64,000 bases of DNA from Candidatus Bathyarchaeia archaeon (GCA_038850515.1 JAWCLV010000004.1:299-64298); one strand, 5' to 3'; counted from the stretch's first letter, positions 24,266 through 38,439 are shown. Program-made: numbers and translations. The notes: a model not told the origin generated them from the sequence alone.

Positions 24266-24487
24266 TTGAACAAGTGCCTAATATGCGAAAGGAAGTCTGA
24301 CAGCCTCGTCTGCGAGCAACACTCGAGGGCTTATCAGAACCTCCTTGAGGGCTACGAAGTATGGAGGAGAGCCAAGGGGCTCTCTTGGAACGAGTATCTT
24401 ACCGAGCTTTCCGAGAACAAGTATGCTGGAGCTTGGGTAAGGCTCCTTGCCAAAAAAATGCTGGATCTTGGGATCAGGGGTCCATAA
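24266..24487 (+). CDS. Small zinc-knuckle protein (hypothetical), abutting the topA stop codon
   Basis: CLICERKSDSLVCEQH has the pattern C-x2-C-x8-C-x2-H and is followed by helical sequence. The TTG start follows the topA TAA directly. Coding potential looks normal, but no family is recognised. Confidence 0.45.
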   Translation: MNKCLICERKSDSLVCEQHSRAYQNLLEGYEVWRRAKGLSWNEYLTELSENKYAGAWVRLLAKKMLDLGIRGP

Positions 24488-24565
24488 ACTTTCCAATACC
24501 CATATCTTTCATTTGCCCTTCTAGCCCTTTTTCACCATAATGGCTTAGCAACCTCGACTTAATGA

Positions 24566-24868
24566 TTAACCTCCTCCGATAAGAATTGGAGCTACGGTTA
24601 CAACATCCTGATCCTTCAGTTTGATGGAGGATAGGGCATCAAGATCTGCAGAAATTCCGTTGATCATGAGGACATATAAAGGGGCTCCTATGCCTTCGAT
24701 GGGTTTCAATTCTTTTGCAAAGGAAGCCCCAAGCCTTTCTGAAAGCAGAACTACAAGATCTTGGAGACTTGCGTTTTCTTGTAGAATAGCATCGAATTCC
24801 CTAACGCCTTTCTTCTCCCCTATCCGACCTATTAAGAAGACCTTAATTTTAATTCCTATCGATTCCAT
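24566..24868 (-). CDS. MoaD/ThiS-family beta-grasp (ubiquitin-like) protein ending in Gly-Gly
   Basis: 100 aa with C-terminus ..VTVAPILIGGG. Last gene of the AOR operon, overlapping the ferredoxin gene by 20 nt. Confidence 0.7.
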   Translation of the reverse strand: MESIGIKIKVFLIGRIGEKKGVREFDAILQENASLQDLVVLLSERLGASFAKELKPIEGIGAPLYVLMINGISADLDALSSIKLKDQDVVTVAPILIGGG

Positions 24869-25334
24869 GAAGACCCCTTGTTAAGTTAGAGGCAAGCTTC
24901 AGTCTCTTCATCTGGGCTTGGATTTCCCTCGTCGTTAGGCTCAGGGCATCCTCTGGACAGGCTTCGATGCAGGCAGGATTTCCATCACAAAGGTTGCAGA
25001 CGAGGGCAACCCGAAGCTCAGGATGAATCATAATTGTCCCAAAATCACAGGCCTCTACGCAAAGACCGCAACCCGTACACTTCGAAGCCTCAACCCTTAT
25101 GATGCCAAGTCCATCTTGGCTTAAGGCATCCCTTGGGCAAGCCTCTACACATGGGGGGTCTTCACAAAGGACACAGGCTATAGAAACGTTCTTGTCCGGA
25201 TAGATCCTTACGGTTCTTATTCTGGAGGAGGAAGGGCGGAAGGCCTTCTCGTACATAAAGGAGCAGATGTATTCACAAATCCCACAACCAACGCATTTGA
25301 AGGGATCGCAATGTACAAACTTGAACTTTTTCAA
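24849..25334 (-). CDS. Polyferredoxin with four CxxCxxCxxxC(P) [4Fe-4S] motifs
   Basis: CVGCGICEYIC, CEDPPCVEACP, CTGCGLCVEAC, CDGNPACIEACP. TTG start with GGAGGT 6 nt upstream. Confidence 0.85.
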   Translation of the reverse strand: MKKFKFVHCDPFKCVGCGICEYICSFMYEKAFRPSSSRIRTVRIYPDKNVSIACVLCEDPPCVEACPRDALSQDGLGIIRVEASKCTGCGLCVEACDFGTIMIHPELRVALVCNLCDGNPACIEACPEDALSLTTREIQAQMKRLKLASNLTRGLHGIDRN

Positions 25335-25336
25335 AG

Positions 25337-27193
25337 CTAAACCTCCATCCTCGGCAAAGTCTTAGCCCTAGGATCGCATTCTTCAAGGCCTAGCTCCAAA
25401 AGCTTCTCTTGCTTAGGAACTCCATCGCAATCCCATCCCCTCGCCCCGTAGTAGTCCCTTACGAGGAGCTCGAGCTCTTCTGGCTTGACAAAGCTTCCTT
25501 TCGCAGGGCCGTTTTGTATGGGGTCCCTCATAATCCTTGGTGGGAGGGTATCCTCAAGCCTTGTAAGCCCCTCCCGAAGGTTGTAGATCCTTGCCATATT
25601 TGTGATTCTCTCAGCCGTCTTAAGGAGGTCTGGGGCTGATTTCTTGAAGCCTGTCACTAGATAGTAGAGCTCTGCCATCTCGTCTACTCCCTTCAAAGCG
25701 GCCCTCGAGAACTTGCAAAGTGGGAGGGAATCGTAGAGAACGTAGAGATCCTCCATGCCTTTCACAAGCTCCCCCCTACCTCCTTCAACCTTGAACCTGT
25801 CAACTTTTCCTGAGAGGTCGAGGCTGTAGGCACCATGGGTTTGATGGTGGGCCCCCCTTCTCGAGATGGCGTAACCAAGGGCTGAGGTTTTCAAGCCCCT
25901 TACATCGTAGCCCGTCATCTCAACTCCTTTCACATGCATCGCGAAGCCCTCCGATCCCTTACCGAGGATTTGGGAAGCCCTCCTCACGCCTTCGGCTAGT
26001 AGGCTACCAAGGCCCTTACGGTGGGCTATGGCTTCCAAGATGGCAAGAAGAGCTTCCGCATTGCCAAAAGTAAGCTTAAAGCCCCCCACATCCTCCTCGG
26101 TTAGAAAGCCCCTTTCGAAGCATTCCATGGCGAAGGCTATGGTAACTCCCGAGGATATGGTGTCCATTCCGTATAGGTCGCAAAGCTCTATAGCCTTTAT
26201 CACAGCTTCAAGGTCGCCAACCCCGCAGTAGGGCCCTAAGGCCCAAAGGGATTCGTACTCAACCCTAACTGTTGTTCCTTTGAACCTTCCGTTCTGGATA
26301 GAGGCTATGTGCTCGCACCCCATAGGGCAGGCGGAGCAAGCTTGGATCTTCGATACGAATCTTTCATTAAGGATCTCCCCGCTGACATTGTAGGCTTCCT
26401 CGAAGACGGCATCCCTATAGTTCCTCGTTGGCATTGCTCCTGCCGCATTAAGGGTCAGGATGTTCGCGGATGTTCCGAGCATCCTGTACTTGCTCGTGCT
26501 AGGCCCTTGGAATCTCCTGTAGAGTTCAAGGCATTTCTCCTCAAGCTCTTCAGGCCTCGCTACGGATACGGGGCGACTTCCGCTAATGGCTATGGCCTTA
26601 AGTTTTTTGGAGCCCATAACGGCCCCAAGCCCCGTCCTGCCAGCGGCCCTGTACCTGTCATTAATGATGCATGCGAACCTAACGAGGTTCTCACCTGCGG
26701 GACCTATGGAGGCGATCCTAATGTCGTAGTTTCCTAGATCTTTTCGGATCTCATCCTCGGTCTTCCAAGTCGTTGCACCCCAAAGGTGAGCTGCGTCCAT
26801 AAATTCTACGTCTTCATCTTCTATGTATAGGAAAAGGGGTTTTTCAGAAGCCCCCAAAACCATAAGTCCATCGTACCCTGCTCTTTTGAGCTCCACTCCC
26901 CAAAAACCGGAGGAGTAAGATTCTCCAAGAAGCAAGGATTGGGGCGATTTTGCAAAGACCCCAAATCTTGGACTGCAAGGAACCATCGTACCAGCAAAGG
27001 GTCCTGTGACGAAGATCAAAGGATTTCCGTAGCTTAGAGGCTCTATATTAGGCTCTTGAAAGTCATAGAGAAGCTTTATTCCAAAGCCTGTGGCACCAAG
27101 CCATTTCAAAACGAAGTTTTCATCTAGCCCGAGAACCTTGTGCCTTCGCTTTTTAAGGTCTACTACAAGAACCTTGCCTCCATAGCCATACAA
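25337..27193 (-). CDS. aor: Tungsten/molybdopterin aldehyde:ferredoxin oxidoreductase (AOR family)
   Basis: MYGYGGKVLVVDL, GPAGENLVRFA, GLGAVMGSKKLKAI, and the CSACPMGC cluster motif. 618 aa. Confidence 0.9.
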   Translation of the reverse strand: MYGYGGKVLVVDLKKRRHKVLGLDENFVLKWLGATGFGIKLLYDFQEPNIEPLSYGNPLIFVTGPFAGTMVPCSPRFGVFAKSPQSLLLGESYSSGFWGVELKRAGYDGLMVLGASEKPLFLYIEDEDVEFMDAAHLWGATTWKTEDEIRKDLGNYDIRIASIGPAGENLVRFACIINDRYRAAGRTGLGAVMGSKKLKAIAISGSRPVSVARPEELEEKCLELYRRFQGPSTSKYRMLGTSANILTLNAAGAMPTRNYRDAVFEEAYNVSGEILNERFVSKIQACSACPMGCEHIASIQNGRFKGTTVRVEYESLWALGPYCGVGDLEAVIKAIELCDLYGMDTISSGVTIAFAMECFERGFLTEEDVGGFKLTFGNAEALLAILEAIAHRKGLGSLLAEGVRRASQILGKGSEGFAMHVKGVEMTGYDVRGLKTSALGYAISRRGAHHQTHGAYSLDLSGKVDRFKVEGGRGELVKGMEDLYVLYDSLPLCKFSRAALKGVDEMAELYYLVTGFKKSAPDLLKTAERITNMARIYNLREGLTRLEDTLPPRIMRDPIQNGPAKGSFVKPEELELLVRDYYGARGWDCDGVPKQEKLLELGLEECDPRAKTLPRMEV

Positions 27194-27210
27194 AGCCTTG
27201 TCACCCGATG

Positions 27211-27537
27211 CTAGCCCACCCTTACCCTAGCGACCTCAAACCTTCTGATGGAGGCGAGCTTCTTGAGCTCTCTGAAGGCATCTCTGAAATCCTCGCAGGC
27301 TATTCCTGGTCTATGATTCCTAGCACAGACGGCCTTCTGGTCGACGATTGTCAGGTTTTTACAGTAGAGACAGAACCCCATTCCATCTAGGAGACCCGAA
27401 GTAGCTCCTTCCACGGGGGTGAAATCCTCGCAGGCTATTCCTGGTCTATGATTTTTAACGCACGCTACGAAACCTTCCATATCCCTGCGTTCTATAAGGT
27501 TTATACAGTTCCTGCAGAAGCTTAAGGTCAAGCACAT
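27211..27537 (-). CDS. Small Cys-rich protein made of two tandem Cys4 repeats (no family recognised)
   Basis: Repeat 1 is C8-x2-C11-x14-C26-x9-C36 and repeat 2 is C56-x2-C59-x11-C71-x9-C81. Both end in NHRPGIACEDF. The gene sits 3 nt after the gltB-like stop codon and 17 nt before aor. Confidence 0.65.
   Translation of the reverse strand: MCLTLSFCRNCINLIERRDMEGFVACVKNHRPGIACEDFTPVEGATSGLLDGMGFCLYCKNLTIVDQKAVCARNHRPGIACEDFRDAFRELKKLASIRRFEVARVRVG
27285..27453. repeat. Perfect 34-nt direct repeat inside the Cys-rich gene
   Basis: tgaaatcctcgcaggctattcctggtctatgatt occurs at 27285-27318 and at 27420-27453, an offset of 135 nt (45 codons). Flanking sequence has diverged. Confidence 0.9.
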
Positions 27538-27540
27538 CCC

Positions 27541-29139
27541 CTAACTAAGGAGGGCCTCCATCTCCAGAGCCTCGGATTCCTCAGGCAAAGGTATGCCTGT
27601 AGCCTTGGAAGCCCTTTCGGTCAAGGCGAAGATATCTCGTCTCGAGACAAGGCTAAGCTTGAACTTTCTTAGCCCTGCCAAGAGCTGTTGAAGCCCTACA
27701 CTCATCTTTTCCATATATCCGTAAAGACCTAGGGCTCCCCAAGGTATTTTATCGGCCTTTTCTCCTAGCCTTGCCTTGATTTCCGGAAGGAAGAAAAATA
27801 GTCTCTCCAAGTCTTTTCCATAATACTCGGTGAAGTGCTTCGGTAGCTTCCCCTCCTTCGCAAGCCGAGCGAAGTATGAGGCCTTCATAACAGAGGTGAG
27901 GGCTGCCCTACCTGTGACGGCCGCCTTAACCAAGGGAACGCCGTCAAAGTTGCTCAAGGCTATAGCCTTAAGGACCTGGGTTTCGTTCACGAAGCCTCCA
28001 GCCATCACTATGTCCGGAACATGCCTTCCCTTCCTCCTTAGGATCTGGGCGCACTTCAAGACCTGGGCTTCCAAGTATACAGTTGGTATTCCCATCTCGT
28101 CCATCATAGGAACTGGACTCATACCAGTTCCGCCCTCACATCCATCGAAGGTTACATAGTCGATGCGGGCCTCCGAAGCTAGTTTAATAGTGTAAGCCGT
28201 AGCCGTTGGCCTGTAAGCACCTGTCTTGAGGCTTACATGTTTAGCACCGTTTTCCCTGAGCTTATCGATGCTCTCAAGGAATTCTTCCTTAGAAGCCATT
28301 CCGACCCGACTGTGCCTCTCGAAGCTTTGGAAGAAGCCGGCCCTATAGGCTGCTTGCACCTCAGGATCGTCAGGATCAGGTATGACAAGGTATCCTCTTC
28401 TTTTGAGCATTATTGCCCTATCCAAGTCCAAAATCCTGACCTCGCCGCCTATGGCCTTCGCACCCTGGCCCCACTTTCGCTCGATAATGTCGACCTCGAG
28501 CTTCGATAGAGCATAAAGATCAACACCAAGCCTTTCGTCCTCGACATTCGTCTGGACGGCTATGGCTCCATGCTTTCCATCCCAGAACTCCCTGTAGGCT
28601 TTCACCCTTTCCTCTAGGTCTGGAGATTTTACAACCCTTCCGCCGCTGAGCTCGGCTTCAGGATCCATGCCACAGACATTTTCTCCTATGGTTGCAATAA
28701 TGCCCGTTAAGGCTGCACCTATGGCTACGCTCCTCCAATGCCTTGCTGCGATGGCTGTGGAGCCAAGGGCCCCCGTTACGATAGGAGCCTTTAGCCTCAC
28801 ACCTCCAACCTCGGTCCCTATGTCTACGTTGGGGAATAGGGCCTTATCCGGGTCAGGCTCTATCCCCTCAGCTCCCCTAACTTCGCAATGGAAGTTGAAA
28901 TGGCTCCAGTCGAGACCATAGTTTTTCATAGCCCCTGCTGTACTAAGGCCAAAGAGGAAAGGAGGAGGGTAGAGGGATTCCCTTCCTCTAAACGCCGATA
29001 GGGAAATCTCGCATACAAAGGGGCATTCCTCGATGCAGAGGGGGCACATGCCGCTTACGGCTGAAGTATCCTTAACCCTAACGGAGGTCCAGTTTGTGGG
29101 CTTCGAATTTAGGTATTTTGAGTCCAACATTTGAGTCAT
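27541..29139 (-). CDS. Glutamate synthase-related FMN-binding domain protein (GltB domain 2 / COG0069-like), stand-alone
   Basis: N-terminal CPLCIEECPFVCE Cys cluster, then a TIM-barrel core with IVTGALGS, DGCEGGTGMSP and IVMAGGF, which are typical of the GltS FMN domain. Confidence 0.75.
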   Translation of the reverse strand: MTQMLDSKYLNSKPTNWTSVRVKDTSAVSGMCPLCIEECPFVCEISLSAFRGRESLYPPPFLFGLSTAGAMKNYGLDWSHFNFHCEVRGAEGIEPDPDKALFPNVDIGTEVGGVRLKAPIVTGALGSTAIAARHWRSVAIGAALTGIIATIGENVCGMDPEAELSGGRVVKSPDLEERVKAYREFWDGKHGAIAVQTNVEDERLGVDLYALSKLEVDIIERKWGQGAKAIGGEVRILDLDRAIMLKRRGYLVIPDPDDPEVQAAYRAGFFQSFERHSRVGMASKEEFLESIDKLRENGAKHVSLKTGAYRPTATAYTIKLASEARIDYVTFDGCEGGTGMSPVPMMDEMGIPTVYLEAQVLKCAQILRRKGRHVPDIVMAGGFVNETQVLKAIALSNFDGVPLVKAAVTGRAALTSVMKASYFARLAKEGKLPKHFTEYYGKDLERLFFFLPEIKARLGEKADKIPWGALGLYGYMEKMSVGLQQLLAGLRKFKLSLVSRRDIFALTERASKATGIPLPEESEALEMEALLS

Positions 29140-29434
29140 TAAAAGCTCAAAAGGAAGCTTATAAGGTTTATGGTAACCGGTAGCCGATTGCCTTATCTGT
29201 ATCTAGAGCTTCGATTTAGTATCCAAATTCATTCCACATCCATAAAATCATGATCCTAGCATAGACTTGATGCAATTATCCTTAGGGCTATAAGGAAGGT
29301 TTCATGCGGATCCTCTTGACTCGAGAACCTTGCCATGATCAGCCTCCTAGAGGAATCGATGAAGAGGGTTAGGGTTACACTTTTTTTGACAAGGCTTCAG
29401 GAAAGTTTTTTATTGTATCGAATTCTTTTCAACC

Positions 29435-30430
29435 ATGAAGGCTATGGTTTCCCCCGCTGAGGAGGGCTATAGAAAGGAGATAGAGATCCTAAGGATTCTG
29501 AGCGAGAATAGAATGCCTATGGGCTCCACTATTCTTCAGAGGGAGCTTACGAAGAAAGGCTTCCTCGTGAACGATCGAACCGTACGCTACCATCTCCAGC
29601 TCTTGGCTGAGAGGGGCCTCATTAGGAATGTTGGGCGTCATGGAAGGATCATAACTGATAAGGGATTAGAGGAGCTCCACAACGCCCTTGCCTTCGAGAA
29701 GGTCAACTTCGTCATCACGCGGTATCTATCCCTAGCTTATAGAGTAAGCTACAATCCCCAAAACCGCAAGGGACTTCTTGTGGCGAACGTTTCCATCGTC
29801 GAAAAGGACTCCTTGGAAAAGGTCCTAGAGATAGTTAGAAGGCTAAGGAGGGAGGAAATTCTCCCAGCTCCATACGTGAAGATCCTTTATGAGGATGAAG
29901 AATATCAAAACGTTTACGTACCTAAAGGAAAGATCGGCATCTTTACGGTCTGTAACCTTACGATCGATGGAATCCTTATGCATGCGGGCATTCCTCTAAT
30001 CCTAAGGTACGGTGGGCTTGTTCAGTTCGTGAACAGGAAGCCCTCTAGGTTTACGGAGCTTGTGGCTTACGAAGGTACGACGATTCCCCCTCCTGAGATC
30101 TTCGTATATAGACGCCTGACCTCCGTCATGCGCTTCCTCGAAACGGGCTCTGGAATGCTACCGGCTAATCTAAGGGAGATACCCAACGAAGCTAGGGAAG
30201 CGGCGGAATCGATCCTGAGAGAGCTTAGGAACGATGGATGGGGAGGCCTCGTCGCCATAGGGAAACCGAATGAGCCTGTTCTAGGAGTCCCAGTTTCCAT
30301 GGATAGATGCGGGATATCGATGATAGCCGGAATCATACCCTTGGCTGCTTTGATGGAAATGAACATTCCTGCTGAAACCTTTGCTCCCCATTGCCTCTTG
30401 CCCATCGAGGAAATGGAAAGAATCGATTAA
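29435..30430 (+). CDS. nrpR: NrpR-type nitrogen regulatory repressor (winged helix plus one DUF128/NRD domain)
   Basis: EIEILRILSENRMPMGSTILQRELTKKGFLVNDRTVRYHLQLLAERGLIRNVGRHGRIITDKGLEEL is the characteristic NrpR N-terminus. At 331 aa it is the single-NRD type. Confidence 0.8.
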   Translation: MKAMVSPAEEGYRKEIEILRILSENRMPMGSTILQRELTKKGFLVNDRTVRYHLQLLAERGLIRNVGRHGRIITDKGLEELHNALAFEKVNFVITRYLSLAYRVSYNPQNRKGLLVANVSIVEKDSLEKVLEIVRRLRREEILPAPYVKILYEDEEYQNVYVPKGKIGIFTVCNLTIDGILMHAGIPLILRYGGLVQFVNRKPSRFTELVAYEGTTIPPPEIFVYRRLTSVMRFLETGSGMLPANLREIPNEAREAAESILRELRNDGWGGLVAIGKPNEPVLGVPVSMDRCGISMIAGIIPLAALMEMNIPAETFAPHCLLPIEEMERID

Positions 30431-30484: not shown

Positions 30485-31480
30485 ATGGAAGGCTTCAGGG
30501 TCGTTTTCAGGGCTCCGAAATTGGTGGATGTGGAGGGCTTCGAAGTGGAGCCCCCTAAGTCTGGAAGGCTCCTCGTAAGGACCGTCTTTAGCCTCATCAG
30601 CCCTGGAACAGAAACCGCCTTCTTAATGGCTTTGGAGAACACTTCCCGAATTTTTCCCCAATATCCTGGTTATAGCAACATAGGAATCGTAGAGGAAGTG
30701 GGAGATGGAATAGGAATAGAGGGGTTTAAACCCGGGGACCTCGTAGCCTCCCCCTCGAATCATGCAAGCCATGTATATCCTAAGGCTGAAGAATGCTTTA
30801 AGGTTCCAGAAACCCTATCGCCAAAGGAAGCCTCCTTCTTTAATCTAGGCATGATAGCCCTTCAAGGAGTCCGAAAATCGAAGATCGAGCTCGGAGAGCC
30901 TGCCGTGGTTTTGGGCTTAGGGCTTATAGGCCAGATGGCTTCCCAGCTCCTCAGATTGGATGGAGCCTTGCCCGTTATAGCCATAGATACCCTAGATAAT
31001 AGGCTTATGATGGCTAAGAGGCTTGGCGCCGACTACATCCTAAATCCGTCTAAAATGGATGCAGAAGAGGAGGTTAAGAGGCTTACAGATGGGAAGGGAG
31101 CTAGGGTTGTGATCGATGCTACAGGGTATCCAGATGCCATAGGATTGGCATTCAAGCTTGCATCCATGAGGGGAAGGGTTGTTCTTCTAGGAAGCACAAG
31201 GGGGCTAAGTACCGTTAACTTCTACAGGGACGTCCATAGGAAGGGTCTTTTTGTCATAGGCGCCCATAATTCCATAAGACCTTCCTACGAGTCTTCTGAG
31301 GGCTACTGGACCCGATTAGACGACGGAAAGACGATTTTCAAGCTTATGGCTAAAGGTATGCTAAGGTGCGGGGAGCTTATATCAAGAGTTGTAAAGGCTA
31401 CGGAGGCGGCTGAGGCTTATAGGTTATTGATAGAAGAGAAGGATAAAGTCCTAGGGGTTCTGCTTGACTGGAACCTATAA
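30485..31480 (+). CDS. Medium-chain dehydrogenase/reductase (zinc-type alcohol dehydrogenase family)
   Basis: SLISPGTE, GYSNIGIVEEVG, and the Rossmann motif VVLGLGLIGQ. Confidence 0.7.
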   Translation: MEGFRVVFRAPKLVDVEGFEVEPPKSGRLLVRTVFSLISPGTETAFLMALENTSRIFPQYPGYSNIGIVEEVGDGIGIEGFKPGDLVASPSNHASHVYPKAEECFKVPETLSPKEASFFNLGMIALQGVRKSKIELGEPAVVLGLGLIGQMASQLLRLDGALPVIAIDTLDNRLMMAKRLGADYILNPSKMDAEEEVKRLTDGKGARVVIDATGYPDAIGLAFKLASMRGRVVLLGSTRGLSTVNFYRDVHRKGLFVIGAHNSIRPSYESSEGYWTRLDDGKTIFKLMAKGMLRCGELISRVVKATEAAEAYRLLIEEKDKVLGVLLDWNL

Positions 31481-31505
31481 AATTAGGGAATAGAAGGAAG
31501 GAAAA

Positions 31506-31535
31506 GGCAAGGCAAGGGAAGGCAAGGCAAGGGAA
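31506..31535. repeat. Perfect 15-nt tandem duplication in a purine-rich spacer
   Basis: ggcaaggcaagggaa occurs twice back to back, and is followed by ggcc. Confidence 0.85.
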
Positions 31536-31707
31536 GGCCAGAAAGGAGGAGATTCGGAAGATCTATACCCTTTGAAAGCTTGTGAGACCTTTAAGCATAC
31601 ACTCTTCCTTATGAAACACTAATTCCTTGCCAAGGGCCTAGTCTCTATCAAAATGTTTCAAAGTCAATAGGCCGTCTATCCCTTTTCCTCCCTTCTTCTC
31701 TTCTAAC

Positions 31708-32952
31708 CTACCTTCCGAGCCTTCCTAGGAGTTGGTATGGGACTGTGTGGATTCTTATCGCCCCTGTGGCGTCCCTCTGATCGAAGCCCGCTCGCTTCAC
31801 GGACCTCATCTCAGGGGAGAAGAGGGAACTCTTGGATTGGCGCTCCACTATCTCTATATTTCCTTTGTAGAGTTTCACCCTATATGTGCCATTCACATGG
31901 ACCTGGGTTGAGTCGATGAAGGCATCCAGATCCTTCCTGAGGGGATGGACCCACATACCATGATAGACGATCTCAGCCCAAAGCTTGTCGATGTATCTCT
32001 TCAGCTGGAGCTGCTCCTTCGTAAGGGTGAGTTGCTCAAGGTCCCCATGAACCTTTAGGAGGATCGTGGCTGCAGGGGCTTCATAGAGCTCCCGGGACTT
32101 CAGCCCCATCATACCATCTTCAAGGATGTCTATGCGGCCAACTCCATTCTCTCCACCAACCTTATTGAGGTAGAGGATCATCTCAACGGGATCCTCGATG
32201 CCATCGACGCAAATGGGAACGCCTCCCTCAAAGGTGATATTCAGCTCCCTAGGCTTGTCTGGCGCCTCTTCGGGGGAAACGGTCCAGAGATAATCCTCAG
32301 GATATTGGGATACAAGGTCCTCGACCTGTCCGCTTCCCATGCTATGGCTCCACATGTTAATGTCCCCACCAAGCTTCCCCCTTCGCCTTTTTGGAGTTAT
32401 CCCATAATTCTTCAGGATCTCCTCCTCCTCGGCCCGCATGAGATTGAATTCCCTGATAGGGGCTATATTCCTTATATCGGGAGCCAAGTAGCTGACAGTC
32501 GTCTCGATTCGGAACTGGTCGTTTCCCTTGCCTGTGCATCCGTGGGCGATGGCCGTCGCTCCAACTTTCCTGGCAACCTCTACACACTTAGTAGCTATGA
32601 GGACCCTAGTCATCGATGTGCCAACGGGATAGCCCTGGTAGCTCCCATTCGCCTTTATGCACCGGAAGATCCATTCTCTGACAAACTCATCCTTGGCATC
32701 GATGAAGACGGGCTCTATGCCAAGGATCTTCGCCCTTTCAAAGGCTATCTGAATTTCCTCTTCGCCCTGACCTACGTCTACAAGGACAGGAACGATCTTG
32801 TCGAACCCGTACTTCTCGCGAAGAAAGATGAGAACGAGGGTAGAATCGAGGCCTCCGGAGAAGGCTGAAACGGCCGTTTTTACGTCAGATTTGGCTTGGG
32901 AGCTGGGGTCTCCCATACAGACAACACCTATTTTTGCGAGAAATTTAAGCAT
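31708..32952 (-). CDS. Divergent argininosuccinate synthase-like N-type ATP pyrophosphatase (ArgG paralog)
   Basis: SAFSGGLDST P-loop, HGCTGKGNDQFR and LKSRELYEAPA are retained. Canonical substrate-pocket motifs are altered (see findings). The true start may be the Met at 32916. Confidence 0.8.
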   Translation of the reverse strand: MLKFLAKIGVVCMGDPSSQAKSDVKTAVSAFSGGLDSTLVLIFLREKYGFDKIVPVLVDVGQGEEEIQIAFERAKILGIEPVFIDAKDEFVREWIFRCIKANGSYQGYPVGTSMTRVLIATKCVEVARKVGATAIAHGCTGKGNDQFRIETTVSYLAPDIRNIAPIREFNLMRAEEEEILKNYGITPKRRRGKLGGDINMWSHSMGSGQVEDLVSQYPEDYLWTVSPEEAPDKPRELNITFEGGVPICVDGIEDPVEMILYLNKVGGENGVGRIDILEDGMMGLKSRELYEAPAATILLKVHGDLEQLTLTKEQLQLKRYIDKLWAEIVYHGMWVHPLRKDLDAFIDSTQVHVNGTYRVKLYKGNIEIVERQSKSSLFSPEMRSVKRAGFDQRDATGAIRIHTVPYQLLGRLGR

Positions 32953-33152
32953 CTTCTTTATAAACTTTTCAAAAAAGATCTTATAGCCTTTACAGTCCTG
33001 AAGAGATGGATAAAGAGTATAAACGATGAAAAATAAGGATAAGGATTAATTCTCGATGAACCTTCCCCTAAAGCCCTTGGACTAGGCTCCTAGGAGCCTT
33101 CCGAAGCCAAGTAACGTCGATACAGTACAGTAGCATAACATAGTATACTGCT

Positions 33153-33174
33153 GATTGGAGGATTGGAAGATTGG
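33153..33174. promoter_or_regulatory. Tandem octamer (GATTGGAR) x2.75 in the divergent argG-like/argH spacer
   Basis: gattggag gattggaa gattgg lies 65-85 nt upstream of argH ATG 33239. Confidence 0.35.
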
Positions 33175-33238
33175 CGATAAACCCTTTATTCTTAGGATGG
33201 CTTTTCCAGTTGGAATTCCTAAGGATGGTTGAAAGACT

Positions 33239-34813
33239 ATGGGCGATATCCTTCGTCGGGGACGCTTAGGATCTGCAAGGGTTCCGGAAGTTGCCGATTA
33301 CACATCCTCCATAAGGGAGGATGCGAGGATCTTCAAGGCAGACCTTCAGGTCGATATGGCCCATGTCGTTATGCTCGTCGAGACAGGCATCCTATCTCTG
33401 CAAGACGGTGCTAGAATCCTGAAGGCCCTTATGGATATAGAAGCCCAAGGATACGAGGGCTTAAGGGGCACGCCGGATCTGGAGGATATTCATATCGTCA
33501 TCGAGACGAGGCTCATAGAAAGCCTTACCGAGACCATCGGAGGGAGAATTCATACAGCTAGGTCTAGGAATGATGAGGTTGCCACATGCATCCGATGGAC
33601 CCTTAGAAAGGAGCTACTGGAGCTCATGGAACTTCTTAGGGATCTGGAGGCAACCCTTCTGAGGAGGGCTGAAGAGAATGTCGAAACCGTAATGCCCGGC
33701 TTCACCCATACGCAACATGCCCAACCCGTAACGATGGCCCATCACCTTATAGCCCACTTCGATGCTCTAGAGAGGGATCTGGAAAGGCTTATGGAAGCCT
33801 ATGCCCGCGTTAATAGGTCTCCTTTGGGGGCTGGAGCCCTGGCGGGAACCGGCTTCCCCATCGATAGGCTTAGAACATGCGAACTCTTGGGCTTTGATGG
33901 TTTGGTAGAGAATTCCATGGATGCCGTCGCCGCCAGGGATTTTGCCCTCGAGGTTCTTTCCGATCTCTCGATTCTTATGTGCAACGTTAGCCGCATAGCC
34001 GAGGAGTTGGTCCTCTGGAGCACATCGGAATTCTCCTTCGCTGAGCTTGACAACGCCTATGCATCGACGAGTAGCATCATGCCCCAGAAGAAGAATCCTG
34101 ATACGATGGAGATCATGAGGGCAAAGGCTGGAAGGGTCTACGGCAACCTTTTGGCAGCCCTCGTCATGCTAAAGGCTCTTCCCCTCACCTATAATAGGGA
34201 TTACCAAGAACTGACACCAAGGCTTTGGGATACCCTCGATGCGACAAAGTCCACCCTTCGAATCCTTAGGGGAGCCCTAGAAACTATAGAGTTTAAGGCT
34301 GATAGGATGCTGGCCAAGGCTGGCGAGGGCTTCTCGACGGCCACAGAACTTGCCGATACGATTATGAGGGAAACTGGTCTTCCTTTCCGTACGTGCCATA
34401 TGATAGTTGCGGCCCTTGTTTCAAGGGCTATTGAGGAAGGACGAAGCCTTGAGGAGATCGATAGTGCCTTCTTGGATGAAGTAAGTTTCAAAATCCTAGG
34501 AAGAGGGCTTGGTATCGGAAATGAAAAGATTAGATGCGCCCTCGACCCTAGGGGCTTCGTTGAATCCCGAAGATCCATAGGAAGCCCGAGGCCAGAGGAA
34601 GTAAGGCGAATGCTGGTCGAAAGGAGAAGGCTTTTGGAAGTATGGAAGGAAAACCTGCAAAAAAAGAGGGATAGCCTTGCCGAAGCTGAAAGGCTCCTCA
34701 AGGAGGCTGTCGAGGCGATAATGGCTAAGGCTATGACTAAGGCTACGGCTGAGGCTACGAATAAGGCTGAGGCTATGGCTAGGGATAGGGATAGGGCATC
34801 TAATAGTCCCTAA
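33239..34813 (+). CDS. argH: Argininosuccinate lyase with a low-complexity C-terminal tail
   Basis: ARSRNDEVAT, GFTHTQHAQP, and the fumarate-lyase signature SSIMPQKKNPD. The tail reads ..AKAMTKATAEATNKAEAMARDRDRASNSP. Confidence 0.9.
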   Translation: MGDILRRGRLGSARVPEVADYTSSIREDARIFKADLQVDMAHVVMLVETGILSLQDGARILKALMDIEAQGYEGLRGTPDLEDIHIVIETRLIESLTETIGGRIHTARSRNDEVATCIRWTLRKELLELMELLRDLEATLLRRAEENVETVMPGFTHTQHAQPVTMAHHLIAHFDALERDLERLMEAYARVNRSPLGAGALAGTGFPIDRLRTCELLGFDGLVENSMDAVAARDFALEVLSDLSILMCNVSRIAEELVLWSTSEFSFAELDNAYASTSSIMPQKKNPDTMEIMRAKAGRVYGNLLAALVMLKALPLTYNRDYQELTPRLWDTLDATKSTLRILRGALETIEFKADRMLAKAGEGFSTATELADTIMRETGLPFRTCHMIVAALVSRAIEEGRSLEEIDSAFLDEVSFKILGRGLGIGNEKIRCALDPRGFVESRRSIGSPRPEEVRRMLVERRRLLEVWKENLQKKRDSLAEAERLLKEAVEAIMAKAMTKATAEATNKAEAMARDRDRASNSP

Positions 34814-34826
34814 AAGCCCTGAGTTC

Positions 34827-35951
34827 CTAAAAAGAGGAGAAAAGATTCTCCAAGGTTTTTCGATAAACCTGAATGCTCGTAAGGAATTCCCTTAGGCTTA
34901 TGCACTCCCTGGGCGTATGCCCTAGCCTCGATTCCCCAGGACCGTAGGTTACGCAGGGTATTCCAAGCTCCATACCGAAGAGATTCATATCCCCCGTCCC
35001 TGTCTTCCTAAGAAGCTTCGGCTTCGTCCCAAGGATAGCATAAATGGCTTTGGAAAGGGCTTGGACAAGGGAAGAATCCTCAGGAACTTCGAAGGCCTCC
35101 GATGATTCCTCGAGGTCCCTCCCAACCCTTACCTTAGGATTTTCCCTTCTAAATGCCTCCACAACCTCATCTACAACCTTGAGGGCTTCTCCGACCCTGA
35201 CAGAGGGGGGTAGTCTCACATCGAGGGTTGCCTCGCAATTTCCAGGCACGACATTCGGAGCCTCCCCTCCCCTAATGCCCGTTATACAAACGCTTATGGA
35301 TTCATACCTATTGCCAATGGATGAAGCCTTAAGGGCTTCAAGGCTTCCCCTAAGCCTCATGTAGATGCTGTAAGCCCCTTCGATGGCATTCTCAAAGGCC
35401 CAGGGCGAGGCCGCATGACCCGAGACCGTTGAACAACGAATTTTCAGCTGGAGCCTTCCCTTATAGCCTATGGTTATGTTTCCAAGGCCGCTGGGCTCAC
35501 CAAAGATGGCATAATCGGCCTGAAGGCGTTCCTTTACCAGATGCTTGACTCCGAGACTTGCCCCTTCCTCATCAACGACGCCTATTGTAAGGATGGTACC
35601 TCGCCCCTCGTAAGGATCTATGGATGCGCCGGCCGCGATCATGGCAGCTAGGGATGCCTTGGCATCCACTGCACCCCTTCCCCATAGATAGTCGTCCTCA
35701 AGCCTTATCGGAAGGGGTCCAGGAACCGTATCCATGTGGCTACAAAGGACTATGATGGGGCGACCATTGCCCCTCTTTCCTCTGACGTTTCCTACGGCAT
35801 CAAGGGATACCTCATAGCCGAGGTTTCCCATCGCTTCGGCTAGGTAGGAGGCCAAGGGCTTCTCCTGGCCGGAGGGGCTATAGATCTTAAGCATATTCAT
35901 GAGAAGATCGATCCATCGGTCCTCTCCCCTCGAATCCGTATGGGATCCCAA
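34827..35951 (-). CDS. lysK: M20-family deacylase, [LysW]-lysine/ornithine hydrolase or acetylornithine deacetylase type (LysK/ArgE)
   Basis: LKIYSPSGQEKPLASYL, VLCSHMDTVPG, GRGAVDAKAS, VVDEEG. TTG start at 35951, or Met at 35900. Confidence 0.75.
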   Translation of the reverse strand: MGSHTDSRGEDRWIDLLMNMLKIYSPSGQEKPLASYLAEAMGNLGYEVSLDAVGNVRGKRGNGRPIIVLCSHMDTVPGPLPIRLEDDYLWGRGAVDAKASLAAMIAAGASIDPYEGRGTILTIGVVDEEGASLGVKHLVKERLQADYAIFGEPSGLGNITIGYKGRLQLKIRCSTVSGHAASPWAFENAIEGAYSIYMRLRGSLEALKASSIGNRYESISVCITGIRGGEAPNVVPGNCEATLDVRLPPSVRVGEALKVVDEVVEAFRRENPKVRVGRDLEESSEAFEVPEDSSLVQALSKAIYAILGTKPKLLRKTGTGDMNLFGMELGIPCVTYGPGESRLGHTPRECISLREFLTSIQVYRKTLENLFSSF

Positions 35952-36043
35952 ATCTAATTACCATCTCTAATTAACTAAATTAAATAGCCTAGCTAGTCTT
36001 TGCGCATTTCAAAAAATATAGCCCTTTTAAGCCTTTCTCAAGG

Positions 36044-36856
36044 CTAGGGAACGAGAGCGGTTCCCCTCTTGCCATCGATGGCTTCTATAATAGGATTCTC
36101 TCCAATTCCGGAGCATATGACGGCTTCCTTTACACCGGCATCCAGGGCTTCTAGGGCCGCATGGACCTTTGTTATCATACCAGGTCCTATGGAAGGAAGG
36201 ATTTCCTTAGCTTCTGAGCTTCTTAGCCTTGGAACAACCTTTCCGTTTAGGAGGAGCCCCTCTACGTCTGTCAGTAGTATGAGCTTATCGGCCTTTAGGG
36301 CCCCAGCTATAGCGGCGGCCGCCCTATCCCCGTCGACATTCAGTATTTCGCCTCCTTCACCGAGGGCGAGGGGGGCAACAATGGGCACATAACCCCCCTT
36401 GAAAAGAAGTTCCAAAAGCTCCGTATTGACTGAAACGATTCGACCGGTATAGCCTCCTTCCATAGCCCGCTTTCTCCCCCTCTCATCGATGACGATGAGC
36501 CTCTTCTTCCTCTCGGCTGCCAAAAGCCCCCCATCAACACCGGAAAGTCCCAGGGCTTTGACTTCGAAGGCTTGGAGGGTCGAGGCGATCTCCTTGTTTA
36601 TCCTTCCAGCAATGACCATCGTGTAGATAGCCAAGGTCTCCTTATCCGTATAGCGGCTCCGAAAGCCCTCTGGAGAAGTTACAAAAACCGTTTCCTTCCC
36701 GAGCCTTTTTGCCATCTCCGTTACCTCGTCTCCACCTCCATGGACAATGGTTAGGAATGCCTTTGCCGCCAGGGCTTTAAGATCCTCTATGAGGGCTCTG
36801 TCAGGAGTCCCTCCGCTACCGAGGATGCTTCCTCCGATTTTAACAACAAACCTCAT
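36044..36856 (-). CDS. lysZ: Amino-acid kinase family, [LysW]-aminoadipate/glutamate kinase or N-acetylglutamate kinase type (LysZ/ArgB)
   Basis: MRFVVKIGGSIL, IVHGGG, NVDGDRAAAAIA, LTDVEG. Confidence 0.8.
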   Translation of the reverse strand: MRFVVKIGGSILGSGGTPDRALIEDLKALAAKAFLTIVHGGGDEVTEMAKRLGKETVFVTSPEGFRSRYTDKETLAIYTMVIAGRINKEIASTLQAFEVKALGLSGVDGGLLAAERKKRLIVIDERGRKRAMEGGYTGRIVSVNTELLELLFKGGYVPIVAPLALGEGGEILNVDGDRAAAAIAGALKADKLILLTDVEGLLLNGKVVPRLRSSEAKEILPSIGPGMITKVHAALEALDAGVKEAVICSGIGENPIIEAIDGKRGTALVP

Positions 36857-37018
36857 GCCAAACCCTCTTATTAAAAAGCCTTTTTCGGTTAGAATTCCTT
36901 TCCTATGAAGGACCTATTCTCCGCTTCCCTTCTTTTCTTATCATCTTTAGATCTTTTATTCTTCTTAATCCCTTCCCTTTCTTTCCCTATCCTCATTCCT
37001 TTTTACCATAAACCTACC

Positions 37019-37192
37019 CTATTCTCCCCAATCTTCCCCTTCAACCTCGGCAGGCTTCAGCTCCACATGGCTTCCTTGGATCTTGTGGATCTCGAACTCC
37101 TGCCCACAGTCTGGACATGAAACGATTTCCCCTAGGACTGCATCGTCCGGGACATTGATGTTGCCATCGCATTCGGGGCACTTGACCTTCAT
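37019..37192 (-). CDS. lysW: LysW amino-group carrier protein (57 aa, absent from the supplied ORF track because it is under 60 aa)
   Basis: My translation is MKVKCPECDGNINVPDDAVLGEIVSCPDCGQEFEIHKIQGSHVELKPAEVEGEDWGE. It has a CPEC..CPDC zinc ribbon and the EDWGE C-terminus diagnostic of LysW. GGAGGTGA lies 6 nt upstream of the ATG. Confidence 0.85.
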   Translation of the reverse strand: MKVKCPECDGNINVPDDAVLGEIVSCPDCGQEFEIHKIQGSHVELKPAEVEGEDWGE

Positions 37193-37210
37193 GATCTTTC
37201 ACCTCCTTTC

Positions 37211-37240
37211 ATTCCATTCTATTCCATTCTATTCGATTCA
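37211..37240. repeat. 10-nt tandem repeat straddling the argG stop codon
   Basis: attccattct occurs twice, followed by a degenerate copy attcgattca. On the coding strand this is AATAGAATGG repeats just before the lysW SD. Confidence 0.8.
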
Positions 37241-38439
37241 TTAGATGATTTTTGTCCCCCAGGCTTCCGGGAGAGAACCCTCTGGGCTACGACTGTTGGA
37301 AGGCCCCAGAGTTCTATGAAGCCTTCACTCGCCCAGGCCTTGAAAGTTGTCTTGGCATCGTATGTAGCCAAGTCAAAATCATAAAGGGAGAAGGGGGATG
37401 ACCTCCCTTGCACCATCACGCTTCCCTTGTAAAGCTTCAGCTTGACTTCCCCCTCAACCCTTCCTTCCATAGCCTCTATGAAGGCGTCGAGGGATCGCTT
37501 AAGGGGTTCGAACCAGAGACCCGCATAGGCAAGGTAGCTCCACTGGGAATCCACGAGCTCCTTGAATCGAAGCTCCATGCCAGTGAGGACGATCTTCTCA
37601 AGGTCCTTGTGGGCTTCTAGGATGCAGATGGCTGCAGGGGCTTCATAGACTTCTCGGCTCTTTATTCCCACAACCCTGTCCTCGATGTGGTCTATGCGTC
37701 CTATGCCATGGGCTCCAGCAATCTTGTTCAAGGTTCTTATGAGGGATACTCCATCCATCTTTTCGCCATTCAAGGCGACAGGGACGCTTCCCTTAAAGCC
37801 TAAGGTTACAGTCTCAGCTTTATCGGGAGCCCTTTCCTGCGGAACAGTAAGGGTAAAGGCATCTTCTGGTGGGGGCTGGTCAGGATATTCTATGATGCCG
37901 CATTCGACGGACCTACCCCAAAGATTCTGGTCGATGCTGTAGGCATGTTTCTTGATGCCTATAGGAATGCCATGGCGCCTCGCATATTCGATTTCTGAAG
38001 CCCTATCCATTCCCCATTCTTTAACAGGTGCATAGACCTTCAAATGAGGCGCCAAGGCTCTGACTCCGATTTCGAGGCGCACTTGGTCGTTTCCTTTACC
38101 CGTGCATCCGTGGGCGACAGCCGTGGCATTCTCCTTTAAGGCTATATCGACGAGCTTTCGGGCGATAAGGGGCCTGGAGAGGGCCGTAGCCAAGGGATAC
38201 TTGCCCTCATAAAGGGCATTAGCCTTTATGGCTGGGAAAACGTAGTCTCTGACGAACTCATCCTTCGCGTCGATACTATAGTGCCTCTCAACACCAAGCC
38301 TTTCTGCCTTTTCCCTTACGGCCTCAAGATCCTCCTGCTGGCCAAGGTCCAATGTAACCGTTATTACGCTAGCTTTATACTTCTCCTGGAGCCACTTCAC
38401 ACTCACAGATGTGTCGAGGCCTCCTGAGTAAGCCAGCAC
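37219..38439 (-). CDS. argG: Argininosuccinate synthase (canonical)
   Basis: LAYSGGLDTS, YEGKYPLATALSRPLIA, HGCTGKGNDQVR, YSIDQNLWGRSVECG, IEDRVVGIKSREVYEAPA. The GTG start puts the P-loop only 3 aa from the N-terminus. Confidence 0.9.
   Translation of the reverse strand: MLAYSGGLDTSVSVKWLQEKYKASVITVTLDLGQQEDLEAVREKAERLGVERHYSIDAKDEFVRDYVFPAIKANALYEGKYPLATALSRPLIARKLVDIALKENATAVAHGCTGKGNDQVRLEIGVRALAPHLKVYAPVKEWGMDRASEIEYARRHGIPIGIKKHAYSIDQNLWGRSVECGIIEYPDQPPPEDAFTLTVPQERAPDKAETVTLGFKGSVPVALNGEKMDGVSLIRTLNKIAGAHGIGRIDHIEDRVVGIKSREVYEAPAAICILEAHKDLEKIVLTGMELRFKELVDSQWSYLAYAGLWFEPLKRSLDAFIEAMEGRVEGEVKLKLYKGSVMVQGRSSPFSLYDFDLATYDAKTTFKAWASEGFIELWGLPTVVAQRVLSRKPGGQKSSNESNRME

Follow-up and report, generated by a model that had tools for sequence, protein, structure and literature searches.

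The locus described here raises the question of why an archaeon would keep a homolog of the flavin mononucleotide (FMN) domain of glutamate synthase (GltS) in one operon with a tungsten aldehyde:ferredoxin oxidoreductase (AOR). It lies in a 64,000-nt stretch of DNA (hereafter, the window) from Candidatus Bathyarchaeia archaeon (GCA_038850515.1, JAWCLV010000004.1:299-64298), where five minus-strand genes spanning 24566-29139 encode a GltS-like flavoprotein (GltB-like), a small protein with two four-cysteine repeats (double-Cys4), AOR, a polyferredoxin and a MoaD-like protein, divergently from a NrpR-type nitrogen repressor. The answer that we favor, tentatively and at somewhat less than even chances, is that this is a nitrogen-regulated operon in which AOR and the polyferredoxin replace an NAD(P)H module as the electron donor to a GltS-like enzyme. 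The AOR-ferredoxin-MoaD module, the GltS fold and NrpR are each already known; new are the conserved operonic join of the AOR module to a GltS-FMN paralog, a double-Cys4 protein family associated with GltS, the alternation with an NfnAB-like module and a variant candidate operator. Literature searches turned up no account of any of these four features, and nothing relevant on a coupling between AOR and glutamate synthase.

A five-gene operon conserved in a small clade of Bathyarchaeia

The source of the window is a Bathyarchaeia archaeon, the top protein matches being proteins of metagenome-assembled genomes (MAGs) at 99% identity. All six open reading frames (ORFs), NrpR included, were found where an earlier note on this DNA had placed them, and direct reading of the sequence agreed with its coordinates, strands and spacings. 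The features discussed below are as follows.

27541-29139, minus strand: GltB-like protein, 532 aa, divergent GltS-FMN paralog
27211-27537, minus strand: double-Cys4 protein, 108 aa, the short form of a GltS-associated family
25337-27193, minus strand: tungsten AOR of AorB type, 618 aa, TTG start (AFOR_N and AFOR_C)
24849-25334, minus strand: AorA-like polyferredoxin with four [4Fe-4S] motifs, 161 aa, TTG start (motifs and PDB matches)
24566-24868, minus strand: MoaD/ThiS-like protein, 100 aa, putative tungsten-cofactor maturation factor (ThiS and moaD_arch matches below cut-off)
29435-30430, plus strand: NrpR-type nitrogen repressor, 331 aa (HTH_12 and NRD1_2; winged helix and one NRD unit)
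29172-29192, no strand assigned: palindrome GGYAA-N4-TTRCC in two overlapping copies (GGTAACCGGTAGCCGATTGCC), candidate operator
29159-29164, minus strand: TATA box, TTATAA within CCTTATAAGC, 20-25 nt upstream of the GltB-like ATG

The region is an operon-like five-gene unit with intergenic gaps of 3, 17, 2 and -20 nt. The GltB-like stop codon and the Cys4 start at 27537 are 3 nt apart (TAG-GGG-ATG), the Cys4 stop is followed after 17 nt (catcGGGTGAcaaggct, which holds GGGTGA) by the TTG start of aor, the aor stop and the TTG start of the ferredoxin gene are 2 nt apart with GGAGGT 8 nt upstream, and the ferredoxin and MoaD-like genes overlap by 20 nt. Internal genes carry Shine-Dalgarno motifs, and the intergenic spacers are too small for internal promoters or terminators; a 295-bp spacer (29140-29434) separates the operon from the divergent NrpR gene. 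In GC content and codon usage the five genes match the rest of the window, which gives no signal of a foreign origin. Searches of the window for tRNA genes and Rfam families gave no matches.

We surveyed the neighborhoods of GltB-like genes in 80 species-representative loci from GTDB and in metagenome contigs, clustering the neighboring ORFs and counting 83 loci in all. The same five genes recur, identically ordered and spaced by -20 to +24 nt, in four other loci (L004, L006, L009 and L013), which corroborates the five-gene operon and extends the GltB-like/Cys4/AOR trio to related genomes. The flanks are NrpR and topoisomerase in the window, DUF131 and PALP in L006, L009 and L013, and other genes in L004, which gives the cluster three or more genomic contexts. 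For each of the five genes, the matrix of pairwise identities yields one and the same topology, ((L006,L009),L013),L004,window, and the genes have diverged congruently to 23-79% identity with order and spacing kept. Conservation of the trio is nevertheless confined to one clade: of the 15 loci in the GltB-like clade to which the window belongs, 5 have the cluster, as do 2 of the 80 GTDB species representatives. In a neighbor-joining tree of GltB-like proteins, the five cluster loci fall on three sub-branches of this clade of 15, whose respective sisters (L007, L017 and L008) are without the four-gene block from Cys4 to the MoaD-like gene.

One of these sisters, L007, is syntenic with the window (NrpR and topoisomerase 96% identical, flanking DNA 90-92%) and has none of the four downstream genes, 725 bp standing in place of the window's 3.06-kb block. 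This replacement segment (L007 3153-3878, syntenic with window 24488-27540) contains no remnants of the four genes; it carries a reverse-strand ORF with a zinc-finger-like motif (CRTCSRTFSENRGKPFF), possibly the remnant of an insertion sequence (IS) or transposase. The GltB-like gene itself is 85% identical between window and L007 (83.5% in DNA), more diverged than the flanks, and no recombination breakpoint was found inside it in this comparison. The central ~200 bp of the NrpR/GltB-like spacer (29186-29382) likewise has no counterpart in L007, whose spacer is ~110 bp shorter. The unmatched spacer and the diverged GltB-like gene suggest that the whole operon, including its promoter, behaves as a variable unit. 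The block, then, is inherited as a unit and stays intact but can be dispensed with, as the syntenic locus without it illustrates; repeated loss and cassette exchange are indistinguishable on these data.

A divergent GltS-FMN paralog

By sequence comparison, the 532-aa protein is a divergent GltS-FMN paralog. It matched PF01645 (Glu_synthase) with 60.5 bits (cut-off 20.4; E = 2e-16) over aa 281-395, and no other FMN-barrel Pfam family reached E = 0.01. As a canonical archaeal reference we used the GltS FMN subunit of L033 (6160-7671; full-length PF01645 match, 8e-140), to which hhalign aligned the protein with Prob 95.7 and E = 9e-9 over 234 columns (aa 118-415), pairing VQTNVEDERLGV with VQVASGRFGV, GQGAKAIGGE with GQGAKPGIGGH and DGCEGGTGMSP with DGVRGATGAAP; the synthase-site motifs QGAK and GGTGxSP are kept in the GltB-like protein. 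With the same canonical subunit as query, tblastn found the GltB-like gene (28% over 318 aa, E = 2e-9), and the family alignment matched E. coli GltB at E = 4e-4, as against 0.08 and 0.23 for the controls LldD and GuaB. The AlphaFold2 (AF2) model is an FMN-type TIM barrel (predicted template-modeling score, pTM, 0.79). Assignment to a non-GltS TIM-barrel family from the Foldseek matches of this model, among the top 50 of which GltS did not appear, was rejected because the hhalign match to the archaeal GltS FMN subunit is significant and those of LldD and GuaB are not. The homology to the GltS FMN domain that had been read from this gene at the outset is therefore upheld by hhalign.

Like GltB/GltD and the split archaeal GltS (GATase_2, ferredoxin-FMN and GXGXG proteins), the protein has the homologous FMN TIM barrel with QGAK and GGTGxSP, and other Bathyarchaeia paralogs are followed by GltD-like and PyrK-like subunits or end a split GltS operon. 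Unlike GltS, it is without amidotransferase, central and GXGXG domains, and it is set apart from the canonical enzyme by two insertions and an additional helical domain at the C-terminus. A C-x5-C-x4-C-P [3Fe-4S] motif after the barrel is a feature of GltS; the GltB-like sequence has none, and carries instead an N-terminal CPxCx3CPx2C motif, whose cysteines (C32, C35, C39 and C43, from a full set at 32, 35, 39, 43, 85, 156, 334 and 363) are invariant among 28 homologs and probably form an Fe-S site. No amidotransferase, GXGXG protein, GltD, glutamate dehydrogenase (GDH) or glutamine synthetase was found in the 64-kb window by tblastn with Bathyarchaeial and E. coli queries, in agreement with the earlier view that the flavoprotein has no amidotransferase or GXGXG partner there.

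The GltB-like family is large (6645 matches), with 62-65% identity to proteins of Hadarchaeia, Methanomethylicia, Nezhaarchaeales and Asgard MAGs. Near the GltB-like genes of the 83 loci we found GDH in 15 (adjacent in 13), NrpR in 11, Cys4 in 11, a GltD/SudA-like flavoprotein in 8, a PyrK/SudB-like protein in 6 and small AsnC-type proteins in 6. Four arrangements recur: (A) GltB-like, Cys4 (212 aa), SudB-like and SudA-like genes, often with a convergent NrpR gene (L027, L045, L049 and L053); (B) GltB-like followed by GDH; (C) GltB-like, Cys4 (~109 aa), AOR, ferredoxin and MoaD-like genes (the window, L004, L006, L009 and L013); and (D) GltB-like alone or with NrpR. In L033 (2788-10238) and L094 (6001-12426), a 535-aa GltB-like paralog directly follows a complete split GltS operon (Cys4, ferredoxin, Pyr_redox_2 with a Rubredoxin_C domain, GATase_2, ferredoxin-FMN and GXGXG), so that two GltS-type FMN proteins coexist within one locus. 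Because its neighbors include GDH, NrpR, GltD-like proteins and split GltS, the family is firmly embedded in glutamate and nitrogen metabolism, yet it coexists with canonical GltS.

A protein of ~340-370 aa with PhoU and MazE/AbrB domains is encoded divergently from Cys4-headed glutamate synthase operons (L033 1567-2655, L090 5813-6826, L091 5742-6866, L093 1498-2598 and L094 4801-5832) and is also the upstream neighbor of GltB-like genes in 8 GTDB loci. It is a second candidate regulator of GltS genes in Bathyarchaeia.

A known AOR module without its flavoprotein subunit

Downstream in the operon, profile and structure-database matches identify the 618-aa protein as a full-length tungsten AOR sensu stricto, of AorB type (AFOR_N 6e-72, AFOR_C 1.5e-127), with the Pyrococcus furiosus enzyme 1aor as the best PDB match (1e-131), then 9mqx_D, 9g7j and 8c0z_A. 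Aligned to 1aor, the CxxCxxxC...C cluster ligands, the Glu of YESxWALG and the pterin motifs DTIS and DSxxLC are in place, and we take these residues to have the roles that they have in 1aor. The polyferredoxin has four CxxCx2-5Cx3C [4Fe-4S] motifs and matches several Fer4 families in Pfam; its best PDB matches are all Fe-S partners of AOR-family enzymes (9mqx_E 5e-32, WOR5 6x6u_B 1e-26 and AorA 8c0z_C 9e-25), and with four motifs, a length within about 150-190 aa and a position adjoining aor it resembles AorA-type subunits. The MoaD-like protein matches ThiS (E = 0.004) and TIGR01687 moaD_arch (E = 0.0015) weakly and below cut-off; it ends in a Gly-Gly terminus (...ILIGGG), and its orthologs in L006 and L004 have ThiS matches on record. 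The profile searches therefore support the domains expected from the earlier note for Glu_synthase (partial), AFOR_N/AFOR_C and NrpR, and leave the MoaD/ThiS assignment weak.

AOR, polyferredoxin and MoaD-like protein form a known module, as had been said of them from their order in the window. In the aor operon of Aromatoleum aromaticum and Moorella thermoacetica (PMC6365974; 8c0z), AorA carries 4x[4Fe-4S], AorB the tungsten cofactor and AorC flavin adenine dinucleotide (FAD), and AorD/AorE are MoaD-like maturation factors; the window operon shares with AorABC(DE) the AOR and polyferredoxin genes and, in its putative maturation factor, a MoaD-like gene. By analogy with that system, in which electrons pass from tungsten through Fe-S clusters to a terminal flavoprotein, the window operon may work alike. 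It differs in having no AorC: no Pyr_redox or FAD protein is encoded in the five-gene cluster, and GltD/SudA and Pyr_redox_2 queries found nothing in the window. The sole flavoprotein is the GltS-FMN paralog, Cys4 is added, the order is aorB-aorA-moaD-like downstream of the flavoprotein, and the catalytic subunit is closest to archaeal 1aor. Like P. furiosus AOR (1aor), the window enzyme is full-length with its cofactor ligands, and like WOR5 (6x6u) it has a polyferredoxin partner. In classical archaeal AOR, by contrast, two identical subunits pass electrons to free ferredoxin, and no flavoenzyme is encoded with them (PMC6365974).

A double-Cys4 family at the interchangeable position

Between the flavoprotein and the AOR module lies the Cys4 protein, two repeats of FCxxCxN(F)..R...G...C..(N)H.P...C.(D/E)F. 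Its eight cysteines are invariant in short, medium and long forms, with Asn, Arg, Gly, His and Pro also conserved, and this pattern marks it as a real, selected protein. The family is rare (147 clusters at 90% identity and 58 representatives among 1.84e9 proteins) and confined to Bathyarchaeia and relatives; all members are 41-220 aa long and named only 'hypothetical protein', and an exhaustive profile search of the family found no domain fusions. No Pfam or NCBIfam family matched, Zn_ribbon_RPB9 alone appearing at E = 0.007, below cut-off, and a Foldseek search of PDB gave no match of any fold at E < 7, so that the protein is not recognizable as a zinc-ribbon or rubredoxin-like one. The isoelectric point (pI) is uninformative for distinguishing a carrier from a DNA binder. 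The description of this protein as unclassified accordingly holds for Pfam, although it is no orphan, belonging to a GltS-associated family that almost always adjoins GltS-type genes and also occurs with an NfnAB/SudAB-like module.

By profile HMM, Cys4 directly follows the GltB-like gene in 11 of 83 loci, and wherever the contig continues, a redox module (SudB/SudA or AOR/ferredoxin) follows the pair. In at least four loci Cys4 partners the GltB-like gene without AOR, an NfnAB/SudAB-like module being there instead. The result is a modular alternation between GltB-like, Cys4 (212 aa), SudB, SudA and GltB-like, Cys4 (108 aa), AOR, ferredoxin. The short form of Cys4 was seen solely with the AOR block and was lost together with it in the window's clade. 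Six further contexts were reached from Cys4 itself, and five of the six hold GltS-type genes.

L090: Cys4 upstream of a GltB-like gene, beside glutamine synthetase
L091 and L094: Cys4 heading a split GltS operon
L093: Cys4 after a SudB-SudA pair
L095: Cys4 beside a split GltS operon and NrpR
L092: Cys4 before HMGL-like synthases (the exception)

In L092 (7001-9296) the genes preceded by Cys4 are of the homocitrate/isopropylmalate synthase type, and in L091 an HMGL-like gene (12702-13913) stands after the GltS operon. The Cys4 family may be linked more widely to 2-oxoglutarate-consuming pathways.

NrpR, promoter and candidate operator

The NrpR protein matches NRD1_2 (1e-78) and HTH_12 (1e-20). 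The distance of 20-25 nt from the TATA box to the GltB-like ATG is one that, by general archaeal promoter geometry, predicts a leaderless transcript of the operon. Two copies of GGYAA-N4-TTRCC, with one mismatch each, abut this TATA box and its BRE (TFB recognition element), and the ctttataa element after the palindrome is also present in L004, L006, L007, L009 and L013. With up to one mismatch, the palindrome lies upstream of GltB-like genes in 27 of 83 loci, where about one would be expected; 8 of the 13 exact matches in the 1.35 Mb of loci are in GltB-like upstream regions, and all five AOR-type clusters have it. Elsewhere in the window it is not enriched (7 matches against 5.5 expected), nor is it elsewhere in the loci. 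GGYAA-N4-TTRCC is on these counts a strong candidate for the operator of the GltB-like operon. In the methanogen NrpR regulon the operator is GGAAN6TTCC (PMC2723118); the window shares with it the domain architecture of the repressor and a 14-bp GG...CC palindrome beside the TATA box of a nitrogen-assimilation-type gene, and departs from it in the half-sites (GGYAA-N4-TTRCC), in the Bathyarchaeon host and in the putative target, a GltS-like/AOR operon. Recurrent NrpR adjacency together with the promoter palindrome makes a nitrogen link of the operon plausible.

Proposed electron flow and alternatives

These observations suggest, short of proof, that aldehyde oxidation can directly power ammonium assimilation in a small group of uncultured Bathyarchaeia. 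The five genes would form one co-inherited operon of a Bathyarchaeia sub-clade, with a TATA promoter and an NrpR-type palindromic operator at its upstream edge, from which 2-oxoglutarate would release repression through NrpR under nitrogen limitation. The GltB-like enzyme would reductively aminate 2-oxoglutarate with ammonia to glutamate. In most archaea its gene stands alone, and the enzyme is presumably fed by free ferredoxin; elsewhere Cys4 and an NfnAB/SudAB-like (GltD-like) NAD(P)H module follow, and here the same slot would be taken by the short Cys4, tungsten AOR, the 4x[4Fe-4S] polyferredoxin and the MoaD-like maturation factor. An aldehyde would be oxidized at the tungsten cofactor and its electrons passed through the AOR [4Fe-4S] cluster to the polyferredoxin. 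Cys4, as carrier or adaptor, would help to hand them on to the GltB-like protein (its Fe-S site and FMN) for the reduction of 2-iminoglutarate to glutamate. The best matches of AOR and ferredoxin support this path, since they are AOR-family enzymes in which an AorA-type subunit makes the connection to a terminal flavoprotein. In a stricter version, a double-Cys4 metalloprotein of a kind not described before would hard-wire AOR and polyferredoxin to a GltS-like FMN/Fe-S enzyme, the oxidation of aldehyde would directly drive 2-oxoglutarate amination under NrpR control, and the input modules docked on Cys4 would be interchangeable; as a whole, this version strikes us as rather unlikely.

Several results weigh against the proposed electron flow. 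The PF01645 match of the GltB-like protein covers profile positions 185-296 of 369, approximately one third of the model; Foldseek placed lactate/glycolate oxidase, IDI-2 and IMPDH barrels on top; and in PDB sequence searches neither the protein nor its family profile (Neff 1.8, too narrow) reached GltS, which leaves 2-oxoglutarate a putative substrate of the GltB-like enzyme. The AF2 model of Cys4 is weak (mean predicted local distance difference test, pLDDT, 66) and without a fold match. Other Cys4 genes stand first in split-GltS operons, with gaps of 120-340 nt, and in one case before HMGL-like genes, contexts that a regulatory or sensing role fits as well as that of an electron carrier; these family members weaken the idea of Cys4 as a pure adaptor of redox modules, and the protein may be an Fe or Zn adaptor or electron carrier, or a regulator. 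The four-gene block is dispensable and clade-restricted, and the GltB-like enzyme works without it, since the block is absent from sister loci including the syntenic L007. A physical redox complex, as the earlier note suggested it, is a proposal drawn from gene context. As for nitrogen regulation, which the earlier note had proposed and which NrpR adjacency and a related palindrome render plausible, the canonical GGAA-N6-TTCC had no match with up to one mismatch in the spacer 29140-29434. The palindrome is present in 11 of 11 NrpR-adjacent loci, an association (Fisher p = 8e-7) that ignores phylogeny and is uncorrected, and NrpR is the obvious candidate to bind it.

The same gene order would arise if the genes were co-regulated and not physically coupled. 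AOR and its ferredoxin would then feed the ferredoxin pool or clear aldehydes derived from 2-oxoacids, the GltS-like enzyme would be ferredoxin-dependent, Cys4 would be a GltS accessory or regulator unrelated to AOR, and expression would be shared because both parts serve amino-acid and nitrogen metabolism. We regard this as a serious minority possibility: a GltB-like gene mostly stands alone, in which case its enzyme has to rely on a soluble donor, the AOR block would have been lost repeatedly with the GltB-like gene kept, and relatives of Cys4 stand first in split-GltS operons to which neither an AOR nor an Nfn module is directly joined. It accounts poorly, however, for a short Cys4 that is confined to loci with the AOR block and disappears along with it, for the placing of Cys4, in either operon type, precisely where the GltB-like gene meets the redox module, and for a tight linkage kept through at least three genomic rearrangements. 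That the adjacency is meaningless, the AOR-ferredoxin-MoaD block and a small ORF having landed downstream of a conserved gene and being read through from its promoter, appears quite improbable to us. The patchy distribution, the syntenic L007 without the block and the IS-like ORF at the same site in L007 are what such a landing might leave, whereas the congruent divergence of the five genes to 23-79% identity with order and spacing kept, the intact cluster in different genomic contexts, its native composition, and a selected Cys4 protein whose 8 Cys are invariant and which is independently linked to GltS genes all speak against that reading.

The direction of the GltB-like reaction might also be the reverse of that proposed, or its substrate another. 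Stand-alone GltS-FMN homologs with other substrates exist, for example N-methylglutamate synthase, and a GltB-like enzyme of this kind could, when nitrogen is limiting, free ammonia from glutamate or an amine and, together with AOR working on an aldehyde product, feed the polyferredoxin in a nitrogen-scavenging catabolic module. The partial GltS match would fit, as would a family that branches deeply and separately, carries two insertions and is without a 3Fe-4S motif, and likewise coexistence with a complete canonical GltS in L033 and L094, which suggests a non-redundant function; GDH is a frequent neighbor, and NrpR-type control suits scavenging as well as assimilation. Yet QGAK and GGTGxSP are conserved, GltD/NfnAB-like partners are typical electron-input modules of glutamate synthases, and, from the redox potentials, glutamate oxidation with a ferredoxin-level acceptor is thermodynamically unfavorable. 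We accordingly consider an oxidative role improbable.

If AOR and the GltB-like enzyme are indeed coupled, this would be a new way to power ammonium assimilation in abundant uncultured archaea of sediments and hot springs: low-potential electrons from aldehydes of fermentation and amino-acid breakdown would be channeled into glutamate synthesis by a glutamate synthase with AOR as its input module instead of GltD/NAD(P)H or free ferredoxin. Coupling would also provide the first functional handle on a highly conserved 535-aa 'glutamate synthase-related' protein of Bathyarchaeia, Hadarchaeia, Methanomethylicia, Nezhaarchaeales and Asgard archaea, and one on the GltS-associated double-Cys4 protein. 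It would also place NrpR-type nitrogen control, with an operator of variant form, outside the methanogens. Should no physical complex exist, the interchangeable NfnAB-like and AOR-ferredoxin modules behind the same enzyme and the enzyme-specific promoter palindrome are still concrete targets for testing.

Neighboring genes

On the MoaD side of the operon, a 73-aa Cys-containing ORF (24266-24487, plus strand) begins at the topoisomerase stop codon and is convergent with the MoaD-like gene; L007 conserves it at 81%, and it belongs to no Pfam family. On the other side, NrpR adjoins an arginine-type biosynthesis neighborhood (30485-38439) that encodes a Zn-type medium-chain dehydrogenase/reductase (MDR), argininosuccinate lyase, an ArgE/LysK-like M20 peptidase and an ArgB/LysZ-like amino-acid kinase. 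Argininosuccinate synthase (ArgG) is encoded there by two paralogs (31708-32952 and 37219-38439), which is unusual.

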